Notes under the pieces: generated by a model
Database searches by the model: none
The model's input: only the letters and a program-made list of their open reading frames with translations
Told to the model about the DNA's origin: nothing
Program-made: the position numbers and the translations under genes
Virus record (IMG/VR): IMGVR_UViG_2531839104_000013
Direction: 5' to 3' (one strand)
Origin: a virus
Taxonomy: Duplodnaviria > Heunggongvirae > Uroviricota > Caudoviricetes
Length of the DNA: 4,986 nucleotides
Shown: positions 1 through 4,986 of the stretch, one piece after another
Numbering within the stretch: position 1 is the stretch's first letter
Layout: each line of letters begins with the position of its first letter

Positions 1-377
1 GCCGGATGAACATCGCAGGCGCGTCCTTTGCCAACATTGAAGGCGTAAAAGCGATGACCTTTGGTAACGGGCATCTTCACAACACGGTAATCAACGACCT
101 GAGCATCATCCAGCCAGAAACCTGCTTTGGTGAGTGCGTCAAAAGCGGCTTTTTGCAGATTATCCAGGTCACGGCGACGGCGATCCGGCATGTGGCACTC
201 AATACGGATTTTCACTGGCATAGCCAGGCCGATATCCAGCATGGAGCCTTTGATGATTCGGGCGACGTTATCACGGTATGCCTGCCCTTCTGCGCTGATG
301 TGCGTGCGCCCGCGATTATGCCGGTAGTAGCGATTATTGCTCGGAGGCCAGGGTAATGTGATGCTGTAGGTATTCAC
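1..377 (-). CDS. rusA: RusA-family Holliday junction resolvase, partial (3' end off window or divergent)
   Basis: Minus-strand translation from GTG at 377..375 gives (M)[106 protein letters not shown], matching RusA as I recall it. The GTG overlaps the ybcO stop (GTGA). After ~101 residues the sequence departs from the RusA C-terminus I remember and continues with no stop to position 1. Confidence 0.75.
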
Positions 378-664
378 GCCTTAATAACCCCCTCTTTCAG
401 CCAGATAACCTGTGTTCTCGCCATACCTTCCAGCGCGCATTCTTTTGCATATGCAGCATCGACAAAATGTGTGCGGCGGTCGATTTCGTCGTGGCAGGCA
501 GAACATGCAATGGTGGCAATCAAGTCTGGCGGTTTGGTACCGGTGCCGCACAATCCAGTCAGCCGGATATGTGCCAGTACAGACGTTTCAGGGTTGCCAT
601 TACATACGCCAGGGATTCTTACTTGGCATTCCCGACTACGCGCTGCTTTTCTCAAATCAGCCAT
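374..664 (-). CDS. ybcO: YbcO-like putative nuclease (DUF1364 family), 96 aa
   Basis: Translation [97 protein letters not shown] chose the ATG at 664..662, preceded by AAGGAGG, over the longer track ORF starting at 703. Stop TGA at 376..374. Confidence 0.85.
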
Positions 665-827
665 GATTCCTCCTTGCTGCCAGTCGCAACCATTTTTTAT
701 CAACCAGGCTGGCGGTATATCCGAGCAGTGTTGGTATTTCGGATGGCTTCAGCTCAGGTTTACGCTTACGACGATTTGGTACTTTGTAGATGTGTCCGTT
801 CATGACACGAATAAGCGGTGTAGCCAT
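657..827 (-). CDS. ninE: NinE-family protein, 56 aa
   Basis: Not in the ORF track (too short). Hand translation gives [56 protein letters not shown]. The ATG overlaps the ybcN stop (TAATG), is preceded by AGGAGG, and the 3' end overlaps the ybcO start by 8 nt. Confidence 0.85.
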   Translation of the reverse strand: MATPLIRVMNGHIYKVPNRRKRKPELKPSEIPTLLGYTASLVDKKWLRLAARRNHG

Positions 828-1282
828 TACGCCTCCTGCTTGTCACGCAGCAGCTGGAACTCGCAGCTCTGTGGAATAGTCAGGTGGCAGCCAATATTCA
901 TCGCCCAGGCTTCAACCTTACACAGGAAGACATACATCTCTCCGGTACCAAGATCGGAGGTATGGCGTAACGACTGGATAGTAGTGATTTCGCCGGTTAC
1001 GACATCAACCAGGTCCTTGGTTTCATAACCGAGGTATGTGTGTTTGAGAGCATCTTTTACCCATGCTGAAGTAGCGAACGATTTCCCCCTGCTGATGAGG
1101 TATTCACTGATTTCGCTGTACCACATGTGGCTGAGTGCATTCTGGGAAAGACTGCGTCTCTCGCGCCACGGTTTAAGCACCATGCGAAAGCATTTGCCGT
1201 CTTCCAGATAAGTCTGGATCTGCTGACCGACAGCGGTGAAGTTACCGCGATGTAATTTGATGCCATCTTGTGGGAGGTTCAC
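827..1282 (-). CDS. ybcN: NinB/Orf-family recombination protein (YbcN-like), 151 aa
   Basis: Track [24 protein letters not shown]...; the RSLSQN motif resembles lambda NinB. Start is GTG at 1282..1280, with GGAGG 6 nt upstream. Confidence 0.85.
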
Positions 1283-1377
1283 GCTTCACCTCCGCAGAGA
1301 TCAAACGCTGGATGCAAGACATCGCAGGTGCATTTCTGCATCTGTGACAAGGTAAGGAGTTCAGATTGTGGTCGCAT
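1279..1377 (-). CDS. Hypothetical 32-aa small ORF translationally coupled to ybcN
   Basis: ATG at 1377..1375 preceded by AAGGGGA; translation [32 protein letters not shown]; stop TGA overlaps the ybcN GTG start (GTGA). The Shine-Dalgarno and ATG lie inside the hairpin at 1373-1396. No homology recognised. Confidence 0.25.
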
Positions 1378-1396
1378 TTAAGTCCCCTTAAATGCG
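1373..1396. repeat. Hairpin/palindrome: 10-bp stem (CGCATTTAAG / CTTAAATGCG), 4-nt loop
   Basis: Perfect dyad read directly from the sequence. On the minus-strand RNA it would sequester the Shine-Dalgarno and AUG of the 32-codon ORF. Confidence 0.5.
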
Positions 1397-1401
1397 CAGA
1401 A

Positions 1402-1430
1402 GTCACCGGAGTTGTTCAAGCTCCGGTGAC
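1402..1430. terminator. GC-rich hairpin, 10-bp perfect stem (GTCACCGGAG / CTCCGGTGAC), 9-nt loop; possible terminator (tR2-like position upstream of the ninB homolog)
   Basis: Perfect inverted repeat read from the sequence. It is followed by ATTATTAT on the plus strand and TTCTGCGCATTT on the minus strand, so there is no canonical U-run and terminator function is uncertain. Confidence 0.3.
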
Positions 1431-1487
1431 ATTATTATGGAAGGTTGATACTAAAAAATCAAAAATTGAATATCATTGGCGATAGTC

Positions 1488-1510
1488 TAGCTTGTGATAT
1501 CCACAAGCTA
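1488..1510. repeat. Perfect 23-bp palindrome TAGCTTGTG-ATATC-CACAAGCTA (candidate operator or recombination site)
   Basis: 9-bp arms are exact reverse complements with a 5-bp centre; located in the non-coding spacer between ybcK and ybcN. Confidence 0.45.
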
Positions 1511-1783
1511 CTTCAATGAAGCGACGAGTAACATTTTGTGTCATCCATGTTTTTTCAGTTAAGTGCCACACCCAGTTCAAAATTTGCTGATGTGTTGAAC
1601 ATGTACTAAGCGGGATGTTGTATTCATAAGCAACATTGATTCCGCAAAATCGGTGTCGTGTCATGACCGATTCACGTTGACCTGCGCCCTGTTGAGTGCC
1701 TGGGGATATTCTTGCTCGATAGTTAATATCATAGTAGTTACTTTACTTTCATACCATAGCACGGTTGAAAAAGTGATTATTAC

Positions 1784-3310
1784 TCAAAAATAAACCTCAC
1801 CATCAACCATATATTTGAGAGCACTTATCGCCTGCTGGGCGGATATTACTTTCATTAAAGGATAGTGTTTAAAAACAATGCCATTCATAAAATAGATATC
1901 ACAGGTTTTATTATCCGTATTAATTATGATTTTTTCGAATATTTTATAGGCAAGTGTACGGCATAACTCTCGTCCATTTTTACTGGTTAAGTCAATAGCA
2001 TAAAAATCACTGAATGAATTTACACCTTTACTCTTCAAAGTTTTCAATGATACCAAAGCTCTTCGTAATTCCTTATCTAATAGTCTTATTTTCTCTGCTA
2101 TAGCGGTAACTTCAGGCGCGACAGACAATGCAACGATTAAATTATTAATTTTCATCTGAAGCTCAATAATTTTTAACTCTAAAGTTTCATTAGCATCTTT
2201 CTTGTTTTCAACTGGTTGAATTTTGCTACAATTAAAAAGCAATTCATTAATGATATTATAATCAACCAAATCTCTCTTTATTGATGGCCTGTCACATCGA
2301 TGTAATCTTCTCATCGGACAAACATAATAGCCATGCAAACTTCCAGATACCGCATGAACAATCATGGTATTACCACAAGCCTCACACTTCATAACTGTTC
2401 GAAGTAGATTTATTAGCATAGGATTCTTGCTACTATTGCTAATACCAAAAGGTGCCAACCGAATTTCCTGTACAGCGTAAAACAAATCATCTGATATGAC
2501 TCTGGGATAATAGCCAGCGATTTCACTTATCCCTTTCCCTCTTGCACGATATGAAGGTACGCATATACCTATCAGAGCTTTATTCGCTAATAATTTTTCA
2601 ATTACAGAAGGCCCCCATGCACTTTCTTTTCCTGAGAAATTCTTTACAGCATGATCATTTAAATACTTGGCTATTGCATTCAATGAGCGCCTTTCCATCC
2701 TGAGTTTAAAAATTAGCTCAATAGTTTTCACCCTGTCGGGGTCTGGAACAAAAGCCGTTCTTTTGTCATCTAAGGAGAGCCATCTCGGACAAGACGCCGT
2801 CATAATCGTACCTGATTCCAGTGCATCCTGCCGTTTTTTCTTCCATGATAATTTAACCCGACTTGACTTTATCTCGCTTTCTTCATTTGCCCTTTGTGCT
2901 ATAAGTATGGCTTTTATTAATGAATATGGCTCATTCAAAGAGTCAATATTATAGACTGTATTGTCGCAAAGAGTTATAACATCAATACCGTGATTCAAAA
3001 TCAATTTCAGACGTTCAATCGCTTCACCGACTTTTTCTCTTGAAAGTCTGTCCAGACTTTCAACTAACAATGTAGTTCCTGGCAATATATAACCATGCTC
3101 TATAGCATCTAAAAATTCCGAAAAAGCTCCTGATTGTGCATGCTTTCCTTTGAATGCACTTAATCCTAAATCTTCATATGTTATGGTATCAAGATAATAA
3201 TCACTATTTACCTTTAACCATTCAGCAATAAGTCTTCTCTGTCGGTTTAATGAGTCGCCAGACATCTGACCTGGTGATGAAAATCGCATATATGCTATGG
3301 CTTTTTTCAT
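1784..3310 (-). CDS. ybcK: Large serine recombinase (YbcK-like), 508 aa
   Basis: N-terminal resolvase catalytic motif YMRFSSPGQ (putative nucleophile Ser), TTLLVESLDRLSR motif, Cys-rich zinc-ribbon region (CEACGN...YYVCPMRRLHRC) and a coiled-coil-like region (ELKIIELQMKINNLIVALS...). AGGTG lies 5 nt upstream of the ATG at 3310. The gene is conspicuously AT-rich. Confidence 0.9.
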   Translation of the reverse strand: MKKAIAYMRFSSPGQMSGDSLNRQRRLIAEWLKVNSDYYLDTITYEDLGLSAFKGKHAQSGAFSEFLDAIEHGYILPGTTLLVESLDRLSREKVGEAIERLKLILNHGIDVITLCDNTVYNIDSLNEPYSLIKAILIAQRANEESEIKSSRVKLSWKKKRQDALESGTIMTASCPRWLSLDDKRTAFVPDPDRVKTIELIFKLRMERRSLNAIAKYLNDHAVKNFSGKESAWGPSVIEKLLANKALIGICVPSYRARGKGISEIAGYYPRVISDDLFYAVQEIRLAPFGISNSSKNPMLINLLRTVMKCEACGNTMIVHAVSGSLHGYYVCPMRRLHRCDRPSIKRDLVDYNIINELLFNCSKIQPVENKKDANETLELKIIELQMKINNLIVALSVAPEVTAIAEKIRLLDKELRRALVSLKTLKSKGVNSFSDFYAIDLTSKNGRELCRTLAYKIFEKIIINTDNKTCDIYFMNGIVFKHYPLMKVISAQQAISALKYMVDGEVYF

Positions 3311-3554
3311 GGTGACACCTGCTAACTTATGCTTTTATAAACCTTAGTGGTGAGATATAATTTTTGTTTAATTTTTATTTAAAAAGACAATTACGATCAC
3401 ACTATCTTGAATATACAACAATAATCGTATTGCAATTTGCTTACGCAATAATCTTGAAGGCACAAAAGAATACACAAAAACTAAAAACATTAACAAAAGC
3501 GGCCCATGTAAAGATATGAACCGCCATATTGCAGTCTTTTAAAAGAAATTATTT
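3311..3554 (-). promoter_or_regulatory. AT-rich intergenic region upstream of ybcK containing phased A-tracts and ATTGCAAT/GCAATA motifs; probable ybcK promoter region
   Basis: A-tracts at about 3464, 3476, 3483 and 3494 at roughly helical spacing; palindrome ATTGCAAT at 3429-3436. No confident -35/-10 pair could be assigned by eye. Confidence 0.3.
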
Positions 3555-3887
3555 TTAATGTGGTGTGCTTCGTGACAATAAATTAATAACCAACACACCG
3601 GCACAAATCAACATCATGCCTATAACGGCTGGCAGGTCCAGCCGTTGGCCGAAAAACCCCCATGATAGTAAGCTAATCAGGACAATACCGACTCCTGACC
3701 AGATAGCATAAGCAATCCCTGTAGGAATATAAGCCAGCGTCTGAGCTAATAACCAGAATGATGCACAATAACAAATAATTGTACCAACAGATGGCCATAA
3801 CCGTGTAAAACCTTCTGAAAACTTCATTAAGGTTGTACCAATGACCTCTGCAAGTATTGCACCACCAAGATAAATATAAGGGTTCAT
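3555..3887 (-). CDS. emrE: Small multidrug resistance (SMR) efflux transporter EmrE, 110 aa
   Basis: Translation MNPYIYLGGAILAEVIGTTLMKFSEGFTRLWPSVGTIICYCASFWLLAQTLAYIPTGIAYAIWSGVGIVLISLLSWGFFGQRLDLPAVIGMMLICAGVLVINLLSRSTPH is near-identical to EmrE as I recall it. I chose the ATG at 3887 over the track ORF's upstream ATG at 3941. Confidence 0.93.
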   Translation of the reverse strand: MNPYIYLGGAILAEVIGTTLMKFSEGFTRLWPSVGTIICYCASFWLLAQTLAYIPTGIAYAIWSGVGIVLISLLSWGFFGQRLDLPAVIGMMLICAGVLVINLLSRSTPH

Positions 3888-3902
3888 AACATATTCTTTC
3901 CT

Positions 3903-3937
3903 GTTCAAACTGGAGAGAATTGTACTACAGTTTGAAC
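3903..3937. promoter_or_regulatory. 10-bp perfect inverted repeat GTTCAAACTG-N15-CAGTTTGAAC enclosing a -10-like TACAAT (minus strand), about 16 bp upstream of the emrE start
   Basis: Arms at 3903-3912 and 3928-3937 are exact reverse complements; the minus-strand TACAAT corresponds to 3924..3919. Candidate operator, promoter or terminator between ren and emrE. Confidence 0.35.
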
Positions 3938-3954
3938 TCAACTCACCTGTTTCA

Positions 3955-4257
3955 TCATTGTGTACCCATTGATGTTCTTTTATATACCCTCAATACCCGT
4001 TTCATCGCGGCACTCTGGCGACACTCCTTAAAAATCAGATTCGTGCTCACCTTTCCTTCCCGTTCTTCTCTGGTAGCGAACCGGTAATACACCGTTCGCC
4101 AGACCTTACCTTCGACGACCAGGATTCCTGCCCGCGCCATTTTAGCCGCAGCCTGATTTATGCTGGTTACGGTTGCACCTGTTACCGCGGCAACGTCCTG
4201 TGCACAGAAGCTCTTATGCGTCCCCAGGTAATGAATAATTGCCTCTTTGCCCGTCAT
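3955..4257 (-). CDS. ren: Ren-like protein (lambda ren homolog), 100 aa
   Basis: Translation MTGKEAIIHYLGTHKSFCAQDVAAVTGATVTSINQAAAKMARAGILVVEGKVWRTVYYRFATREEREGKVSTNLIFKECRQSAAMKRVL... matches lambda Ren as I recall it. Its ATG overlaps the P stop (ATGA). Confidence 0.88.
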   Translation of the reverse strand: MTGKEAIIHYLGTHKSFCAQDVAAVTGATVTSINQAAAKMARAGILVVEGKVWRTVYYRFATREEREGKVSTNLIFKECRQSAAMKRVLRVYKRTSMGTQ

Positions 4258-4955
4258 ACACTTGCTCCTTTCAGTCCGAACTTAGCTTTAATTTCTGCGA
4301 TCTTCGCCAGAGCCTGTGCACGATTTAGAGGTCTACCGCCCATAACAGGAAGTTGTTTTACTGGTTCAGGTATCGTCTCACCACGGTTAATTCGCGCTGT
4401 CATACAGGTCAGTTCATCGGCAGCCTTGCGCCGTAATTCCGCGTCAGTCAGCGCATTGGCCCGCATGTTCTGGTACAAGTTGGTAACCAACCAGTAATGC
4501 GCGTTCGATTTCCACGGATAAGACTCTGCATCCGGATACAGGCCTCGCTTCCGGCAATACTCGTAAACCATATCAACCAGCTCGCTGACGTTTGGCAGTC
4601 CGGCGATAACGGATGCTTCTTCCCGGCACCATGCAACAAACTGCCCGGGTGATGGCAGAAATGGTCGATTCTGCCGACGGGCTACGCGCATTCCTGCGTT
4701 AACCTGTTCCATTGAGGTGATCCCGTTTTCCCGGAAAGCCAGAACCCACTGGCGGCGGATTTCGTTCACTTCGTTCTGGTCACGGTTAGCCAGGCTCGCC
4801 GGGAAAGTTGCCAGTAACTGGCTGAACACACCGTTGATGATCTGCGCTACCTGCTGTACCTGCGGCTTTTCGTCGTACTGTTCCGGCATGTTGTTGGCGA
4901 TCCGACGCATCTGCTCACGGTCAAAGTTAACCATCTGTGCGGCGATGTTTTTCAT
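4254..4955 (-). CDS. P: Lambda-type replication protein P (DnaB helicase loader), 233 aa, intact
   Basis: Translation MKNIAAQMVNFDREQMRRIANNMPEQYDEKPQVQQVAQIINGVFSQLLATFPASLANRDQNEVNEIRRQWVLAFRENGIT... is near-identical to lambda P as I recall it, full length. Confidence 0.95.
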   Translation of the reverse strand: MKNIAAQMVNFDREQMRRIANNMPEQYDEKPQVQQVAQIINGVFSQLLATFPASLANRDQNEVNEIRRQWVLAFRENGITSMEQVNAGMRVARRQNRPFLPSPGQFVAWCREEASVIAGLPNVSELVDMVYEYCRKRGLYPDAESYPWKSNAHYWLVTNLYQNMRANALTDAELRRKAADELTCMTARINRGETIPEPVKQLPVMGGRPLNRAQALAKIAEIKAKFGLKGASV

Positions 4956-4986
4956 AGATCCACCCCGTAAATCCAGTCTGTGTTTG
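4952..4986 (-). CDS. O: 3' end of the upstream gene, presumably replication initiator O (partial)
   Basis: Minus-strand frame ending ...NTDWIYGVDL with stop TGA overlapping the P start (ATGA). Only 11 codons are in the window, so identity rests on synteny and a weak recollection of the lambda O C-terminus. Confidence 0.5.
   Translation of the reverse strand, partial: NTDWIYGVDL

Follow-up and report, generated by a model that had tools for sequence, protein, structure and literature searches.

The ybcK locus and its predicted product

The DNA analyzed here (the window) is a 4,986-nucleotide stretch of the IMG/VR virus record IMGVR_UViG_2531839104_000013, and the gene of interest within it is ybcK (positions 1784 to 3310, minus strand), which, judged by its domains, motifs, and RefSeq identity, encodes an intact large serine recombinase (LSR) of 508 amino acids. 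Bases 57 to 4986 are 99.9% identical to Escherichia coli O157:H7 EDL933 (NZ_CP120944.1, 3038343 to 3043272), where RefSeq labels this open reading frame (ORF) "ybcK: recombinase family protein" (WP_000709077.1). All genes of the window lie on the minus strand and follow one another as in a lambdoid early operon: the replication gene P (4955 to 4254), ren (3955 to 4257), the small multidrug-resistance efflux gene emrE (3555 to 3887; NCBIfam EmrE, 240 bits against a cut-off of 226), ybcK, the NinB-like gene ybcN (1282 to 827), and, beyond ybcN, ninE, ybcO, and the start of rusA. The G+C content is 30 to 42% across about positions 1350 to 3900, compared with 49 to 56% on either side, and the low-G+C block is laid out as ren, emrE, ybcK, a variable cargo, and ybcN.

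As an annotated y-gene in an ordinary mosaic setting, the locus is already known. ybcK has been described as a "predicted recombinase" of the K-12 prophage DLP12 (PMC9504249), and the Resolvase/Recombinase/zinc-ribbon architecture of YbcK has been published, with SpoIVCA as the top PSISearch2D match (PMC6637259). The DLP12 protein (UniProt P77698) is encoded by the same gene: the proteins are 97 to 99% identical, and the ren-emrE-ybcK order and the nin slot are the same. The locus studied here differs from that of DLP12 in residing in an O157:H7 defective prophage at icd and in having, where DLP12 has ybcL and ybcM, a decayed remnant of 254 nt.

In EDL933, the host element is a defective lambdoid prophage that adjoins icd and has a tyrosine "site-specific integrase" and an excisionase at the icd junction. 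A preliminary description of the window had placed ybcK mid-prophage next to emrE, and this proved correct: the gene lies between ren and ybcN, away from any attP or prophage end, and its product is a different enzyme from the integrase of this prophage. The ybcK-carrying phage Perceval encodes a tyrosine integrase (Int) and an excisionase (Xis) at the canonical location, so there, too, the primary integrase is an enzyme other than YbcK. Just past the high end of the window (L001 24896 to 27192), an O gene lacking its N terminus is joined straight to xis and int; the host prophage thus lacks both an immunity region and a recombination region.

The ybcK ORF begins with ATG and has no internal stop codon. 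Three Pfam domains, counted only above their gathering scores, were detected in its product, all encoded on the minus strand: a resolvase-type catalytic domain (PF00239, Resolvase, E = 5e-19; residues 4 to 161, positions 2828 to 3301), a Recombinase domain (PF07508, E = 2e-14; residues 191 to 284, positions 2459 to 2740), and a zinc-ribbon domain (PF13408, Zn_ribbon_recom, E = 8e-8; residues 302 to 357, positions 2240 to 2407). YbcK also matched PHROG 95, "integrase," at an E value of 7e-120. The catalytic constellation of gamma-delta resolvase consists of Y6, R8, S10, D67, R68, and R71, and on this basis we assigned to YbcK the motifs Y7-x-R9-x-S11 and D87-R88-x-x-R91, with Ser11 (codon 3278 to 3280) as the predicted nucleophile; the zinc-ribbon cysteines are Cys309, Cys312, Cys331, and Cys339. 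In an alignment of 25 family members (40 to 97% identity), R9, S11, Q15, D87, R88, R91, and the four cysteines were invariant, and Y7 was nearly so. When YbcK was compared with the resolvase by BLASTP, the alignment covered the DRL motif only.

An AlphaFold model built on the 25-member alignment (mean pLDDT, 80.5) contains two long helices, residues 373 to 397 and 401 to 427, in the position of the LSR coiled-coil arm, so that a predicted arm is encoded at positions 2030 to 2194 of the minus strand. Foldseek searches with this model returned full-length serine integrase-att complexes (E values of 1e-18 to 1e-11); the best matches were 9dxd and 9dxh (1e-18 to 3e-17), and phiC31 (9tep), Bxb1 (9iu2), and LI integrase (4kis) were also matched. 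YbcK thus appears, from its sequence, to combine the catalytic, Recombinase, and zinc-ribbon domains of an LSR, and the model predicts the coiled-coil arm and the overall LSR fold as well, in agreement with the earlier reading of the ORF as an intact and catalytically plausible LSR. In domain order, coiled-coil fold, and catalytic motifs, YbcK resembles the phage serine integrases (phiC31, Bxb1, A118/LI, and TP901-1). It differs from them in being only 14 to 20% identical in structural alignments and in being encoded away from attP and the prophage end, in phages that carry a separate tyrosine Int and Xis. The family is divergent in sequence, and no recombinase was detected in the PDB by sequence searches with YbcK itself or with the family profile.

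Distribution, selection, and mosaic borders of the emrE-ybcK block

To determine how widely ybcK occurs, we searched 5,426 complete E. coli genomes with the gene and its flanks (positions 1718 to 3560) as the query. Matches were obtained in 1,426 genomes (about 26%) and were near full length in 1,400, with one or two places per genome and a single context throughout those 1,400. Among the matches listed, every ybcK match also covered emrE, and emrE lay upstream of ybcK at all E. coli loci that include this region. The ren-emrE-ybcK order was found in 11 sequenced infectious phages (Perceval, Turner, PhiR34_1, PhiR68_2, PhiR70_1, PhiR47_2, 4A7, Lambda_4C10, D2, 1W, and 3W) and was kept at all informative loci among 80 IMG/VR contigs.

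The ybcK alleles of the window and of Perceval differ by 39 synonymous and 11 nonsynonymous changes (dN/dS = 0.07). An intact 508-codon ORF was present in 79 of 80 IMG/VR copies, and the 35 E. coli protein alleles that these copies encode showed no change at any catalytic or cysteine position. The low dN/dS, the intact copies, and the invariant positions together indicate that ybcK is maintained by strong purifying selection, and YbcK appears, from the conserved residues, to retain all elements needed for serine-recombinase chemistry. Losses of ybcK were seen in defective prophages, as IS1203 insertions in some O157 strains, one IS1-associated deletion, and a random deletion of positions 1347 to 3155 in two genomes. 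IS1203, a member of the IS3 family, splits ybcK into two fragments, each annotated "recombinase family protein," in O157:H7 strains F7386, 149, 148, 147, and others (hits H5 to H10 and H205).

BLASTN comparison with other lambdoid genomes showed that the emrE-ybcK block spans positions 1718 (or 1745) to 3982. The left border is a mosaic joint at 3982/3983, within the last codons of ren: phage SfI, many Stx1a phages, and a prophage of E. coli strain A3 resume homology at position 3983. At the other end, homology to other phages ends 39 to 66 nt past the ybcK stop codon, which delimits a 3' flank that travels with ybcK (1718 to 1783, minus strand), with borders at 1718 in Perceval and Turner and at 1745 in PhiR34_1. 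Between emrE and ybcK lies an AT-rich spacer that forms the ybcK leader (3311 to 3554, minus strand) and includes a ylcJ-like small ORF. Just past emrE, this spacer carries a hairpin and T run resembling an intrinsic terminator (3498 to 3525, minus strand; z = -3.3), and emrE therefore looks self-contained and separate from ybcK.

The slot that extends from the ybcK stop codon to the flank upstream of ybcN is occupied by at least 10 cargo length classes of 320 to 3,194 nt (loci L098 to L177 and L002 to L004). Their contents include ybcL and ybcM (the DLP12 type), an alpha/beta hydrolase gene (Perceval), small ORFs with one for an Ant-like P22_AR_C protein (Turner), and IS-bearing derivatives. 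The points at which cargoes diverge are scattered (about 283, 330, 420, and 486 nt past the ybcK stop codon) and therefore do not form the pattern expected of recombination at one site. In the window, the slot holds a decayed remnant (1464 to 1717, minus strand) that corresponds to a 1,214-nt cargo type minus two internal deletions, the first of which is flanked by a CTATC direct repeat. The 63-amino-acid ORF of this remnant is the tail of a 105-amino-acid ORF that is still intact in locus L113. PADLOC models gave no match for the 63-amino-acid ORF or for YbcK, EmrE, Ren, or YbcN, and nothing was found in the window with Rfam.

The conserved lambdoid flank upstream of ybcN (1287 to 1463, minus strand), which BLASTN placed at or below position 1463, has the right mosaic joint as its outer edge. 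It contains a promoter-like sequence (TTGATT-17-CATAAT), then a hairpin with a 10-bp stem at 1402 to 1430 (GTCACCGGAG...CTCCGGTGAC; -20.4 kcal/mol, z = -3.7), and a small ORF. Lambdoid prophages with and without the emrE-ybcK block have this flank in common. In the strain A3 prophage, which has neither emrE nor ybcK, the left and right borders enclose a 765-nt filler of another kind, with two small ORFs; the right border (TTTGATT...) thus also occurs in a prophage without ybcK. The promoter-like and hairpin element (1402 to 1463), upstream of the small ORF and ybcN, marks a recurrent mosaic joint.

Two other arrangements 3' of ybcK were considered and rejected. An integron-like cassette site is at odds with the heterogeneous break points and with the outer border shared with the ybcK-less prophage. 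An apparent inversion of a 70-nt segment between the window and Perceval or Turner came down to a BLASTN reverse match of only 10 nt, and what actually distinguishes the sequences is a deletion of 228 nt with CTATC on its flanks. In the 40 nt 3' of the stop codon (1743 to 1782), the sub-blocks TAATAATCACT and GCTATGGTATG are reverse complementary to sub-blocks of the 5' coding region of ybcK (3179 to 3209; inverted-repeat pairs I4 and I9). The order of these blocks is not inverted, and the significance of the pairs is marginal. The sequence GCTATGGT..AAAGT is kept in all three E. coli types of ybcK 3' flank.

Taken together, these comparisons show that ybcK spreads along with the phages that carry it and that ordinary mosaic exchange among lambdoid genomes reshuffles it; by sequence comparison, the borders of the block look like commonplace lambdoid mosaic joints. 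The passenger block, which consists of emrE, the ylcJ leader, and ybcK, is fixed between ren and ybcN in one E. coli lambdoid lineage.

Possible mobility, decay, and local rearrangement

Full-length YbcK homologs (40 to 61% identity) were found in Atlantibacter, Yersinia, Erwinia, Ewingella, Citrobacter, Kluyvera, and Pantoea, and the relatives occupy three contexts: nin regions after O and P, the tail-fiber end of prophages, and plasmids on which they stand alone. In the nin-region context, a cytosine methylase gene lies just upstream of the Atlantibacter homolog (L016), and DinI, DUF1367, NinG, and Q genes lie downstream of those at L179 and L180, with a SIR2 gene upstream at L179. The homologs at L007, L009, L012, L018 to L020, and L025 are the last or nearly the last gene after tail-fiber and assembly genes. 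Prophage-edge relatives, each viewed with 10 kb of flank only, lie beside an autotransporter gene in Yersinia, 540 nt from the 3' end of ssrA in Atlantibacter, and near lepA in Erwinia. The Ewingella homolog follows umuDC, the Citrobacter homolog (near purB) follows an SRAP gene, and a Pantoea homolog is found beside two Lom/Ail genes. Solitary copies amid metabolic genes are carried by Pantoea and Duffyella plasmids. Judged from the neighboring genes, these contexts are classic accessory-gene slots.

In this respect, the E. coli locus resembles lambdoid "morons": it is a compositionally foreign block amid conserved phage genes, its emrE gene has its own terminator, and its neighboring cargo is interchangeable, just as relatives of YbcK are encoded beside umuDC, SRAP, Lom/Ail, autotransporter, methylase, SIR2, and DinI genes. 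Morons usually have lysogenic-conversion or defense functions, however, and a conserved, catalytically intact recombinase is a less usual passenger. For the relatives that follow tail-fiber and assembly genes, tail-fiber inversion of the Gin/Pin kind was rejected, with no inverted repeats or invertible segment found. In Citrobacter pasteurii (L020 8803 to 9110), a tRNA-like 3' fragment (…GGTTCAAATCCTCTCGTACTAACCA) lies between the purB-side junction and the SRAP gene and may be an att remnant of that prophage. The edge relatives of Atlantibacter, Erwinia, and Citrobacter were considered as possible integrases of their prophages; for Citrobacter, the placement of the SRAP gene and this fragment between the junction and the LSR gene fits an accessory slot.

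The same relatives could be taken to mean that ybcK is, or until recently was, a self-mobile minimal LSR unit, comprising the gene, about 70 to 220 nt of upstream DNA, and at most about 66 nt of downstream DNA, that moves among accessory slots of phages and plasmids. Close relatives do occur in unrelated contexts in Pantoea and Atlantibacter, and homology between such context-switching copies is limited to the gene, 68 to 425 nt upstream, and 0 to 56 nt downstream. Three Pantoea copies (L021, L031, and L096; 88 to 94% identical) have 221 to 425 nt in common upstream and 9 to 56 nt downstream, and the nin-region and tail-end copies of Atlantibacter (76% identical) have 68 nt in common upstream and none downstream. 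The solitary plasmid copies also speak for mobility. In contrast, the context is the same in 1,400 E. coli genomes, none of which has more than two places, PLSDB contained no empty site for the Pantoea soli plasmid copy, and the ends of the unit have neither terminal inverted repeats nor palindromic att-like arms. Moreover, the scars beside the relatives (L031 and L179) are partial gene duplications such as illegitimate recombination leaves, whereas an LSR crossover involves a 2-bp overlap, and homology that ends near the gene is expected for any selected gene in a mosaic genome. On this evidence, we consider self-mobility unlikely. An LSR transposon of the Tn4451/Tn5397 type was rejected for E. 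coli in view of the single context and the lack of an empty site; in other genera the evidence is ambiguous.

The duplications themselves are diverged, and they lie on either side of the blocks that carry the YbcK homologs. At L179, positions 9623 to 9851 and 12609 to 12831 are duplicates of the first 59 codons of the DUF1367 nin gene (82.5% identity), and at L031, positions 9239 to 9681 and 12174 to 12616 are duplicates of the 3' part of P (71 to 73% identity). By their sequence, both pairs have the look of scars left when offset lambdoid genomes recombine illegitimately. LSR-type insertion into the DUF1367 gene of L179 was rejected: palindromic att-like arms are lacking, and a 229-nt duplication fits offset illegitimate recombination.

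Still less probable, in our estimation, is that ybcK is left over from a captured integration module, is decaying, and has no present function. Such a relic would account for an orphan gene without att sites, for its interruption by IS1203 in some O157 strains, and for the visible decay of the adjoining cargo in the window. Silencing by Rho in K-12, where a Rho/NusG-dependent terminator lies in the untranslated ybcK leader (PMC4150792), points the same way. Against decay stand the dN/dS of about 0.07, the intact ORF in 79 of 80 copies, and the invariance of the catalytic residues, together with conservation across the family down to 40% identity. In addition, ybcK has been kept in infectious phages, in which genome size is limited by packaging.

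The preliminary description had proposed that the recombinase could excise, integrate, or invert the emrE-containing segment, with dyads at 3903 to 3937 and 1488 to 1510 as candidate substrates. Several features of the locus favor action on these or nearby sites: an intact LSR gene lies within a compositionally distinct block, there are dyads near both ends of that block, and a weak inverted repeat (28 nt, 71%) brackets ybcK and its cargo. Both dyads exist as described. The first, which precedes the emrE start codon by 16 nt in the ren-emrE interval and belongs to the constant part of the block, has 13-nt arms with one mismatch and a 9-nt center; the second has perfect 9-nt arms and a 5-nt center and lies within the 3' remnant of the 105-amino-acid cargo ORF. 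As substrates, they fared poorly. The 1488-to-1510 dyad was found in only 8 of 84 ybcK loci. The 3903-to-3937 dyad showed uncompensated one-arm changes in 10 of 81 loci, had no second copy of its half-site in the window, and as RNA folded no better than shuffled sequences (z = -1.0). No half-site is common to the two dyads.

LSR att sites are pairs of about 40 to 50 bp with a central crossover dinucleotide. In accord with the earlier impression that cognate sites were missing, neither the window nor the 45-kb prophage contained a recognizable att pair, no flanking repeat pair exceeded chance, and scanning the 45-kb prophage with the noncoding segments returned matches of 10 to 13 nt only. The emrE-upstream dyad region (3900 to 3942) and the 3' end of tail gene M (L001 2106 to 2133) have two colinear exact blocks in common, CCTGTTCAAACT and TGAACTCAAC, of 12 and 10 nt, in direct orientation and 21.7 kb apart; by a rough estimate, the chance of such a match is roughly 0.03 to 0.04. 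As a recombination partner, the site in M was rejected, with a deletion junction in 0 of 5,426 genomes and the site present with or without ybcK. The 28-nt inverted repeat (1448 to 1475 and 3351 to 3378) was likewise rejected as a pair of element ends, being AT rich and at chance level, with an excision junction in 0 of 5,426 genomes.

Rearrangement products were sought directly by counting, across the 5,426 genomes, places that cover both halves of a junction query. A ren-ybcN junction, which is the empty site of the whole block (allowing a gap of up to 650 nt), was found in none. Precise loss of ybcK and its cargo, with the emrE terminator region joined to ybcN, was also found in none, and only the random deletion appeared, in two genomes. 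No genome had the reverse-complemented 3' end of ybcK beside ren, as inversion would place it. The random 1347-to-3155 deletion and the IS1-associated deletion are the only deletional losses seen, and the right border occurs in a ybcK-less prophage too. On these genome data, ybcK does not rearrange its own neighborhood, and the idea that it moves or flips the emrE segment is left with very little probability. In this, YbcK differs from LSRs such as SpoIVCA, XisF, TnpX/TndX, and CcrAB, whose substrate is a defined segment: around ybcK there was neither a segment that could be excised nor an empty site nor the signature of a circular junction, and YbcK is only weakly similar to the XisF model (46.9 bits, far under the family cut-off of 375 bits). 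Assignment as a DNA invertase of the Hin/Gin/Pin type (about 190 amino acids) was rejected, given a 508-amino-acid protein with LSR domains, the lack of bounding inverted repeats, and an inverted arrangement in 0 of 5,426 genomes.

Equally improbable is co-option for a role other than recombination, such as that of a DNA-binding regulator or a stress-tolerance factor: T7-driven overexpression of ybcK raised sabinene tolerance by 128% and knock-out lowered it (PMC7181518), but the phenotype arose under strong overexpression and is nonspecific, and the strict conservation of the nucleophile and the entire catalytic constellation would be unnecessary for a protein that only binds DNA.

Proposed role of YbcK

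Of the options raised in the preliminary description, action on a distant site is now the favored one. We consider it reasonably probable that ybcK is a fixed passenger LSR gene of the nin region whose product acts in trans on sites outside the window; any specific reaction, for example integration by a second route or action on DNA of the host or of a competitor, is far less probable than this general reading. As a trans-acting site-specific recombinase, YbcK would bind as dimers to two att-type sites outside the window and synapse them through the coiled-coil arm. Ser11 would cut the DNA to give double-strand breaks with a 2-nt stagger and 5'-phosphoseryl links, the subunits would rotate by 180 degrees, and the ends would then be rejoined. 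ybcK would not be expressed in the lysogen; its expression would come with N-antiterminated early transcription that continues through the gene after infection or induction, a model suggested by the co-orientation of ybcK with P, ren, and the nin genes and by the Rho/NusG-dependent leader terminator of K-12.

Several points weigh against action in trans. Neither a target site nor a partner site nor a recombination directionality factor was identified, so the case for a trans-acting recombinase is made by conservation only. The searchable literature reports no recombination activity or substrate for YbcK, and its sole published phenotype is sabinene tolerance (PMC7181518). We infer expression by N-antiterminated read-through, and rare or transient rearrangements would escape detection in assembled genomes. 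Finally, because IS1203 interrupts ybcK in some O157 strains, the gene is dispensable in a defective prophage.

A broader proposal, which we put forward tentatively and hold to be possible rather than probable, is that YbcK represents a clade of LSRs of Enterobacterales phages and plasmids that are strongly conserved, are never the primary integrase, and reside in accessory slots. Members of such a clade would have a dedicated trans function of advantage to the phage at early read-through, either as a second integration route or in attacking or rearranging a locus of the host or of a competitor, or else would be minimal self-mobile units.

ybcK is an uncharacterized y-gene of K-12 that is found in roughly one in four complete E. 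coli genomes. The obvious hypothesis, in which ybcK mobilizes or inverts the emrE block, is removed by the present analysis, which also shows that infectious lambdoid phages actively maintain the gene. What results is a defined question, namely, which DNA is the target of a conserved phage LSR that is probably made with the early transcript. If the target pair were found, it would provide an additional orthogonal serine integrase from a well-studied host-phage system and might reveal a second site-specific recombination function in lambdoid biology.

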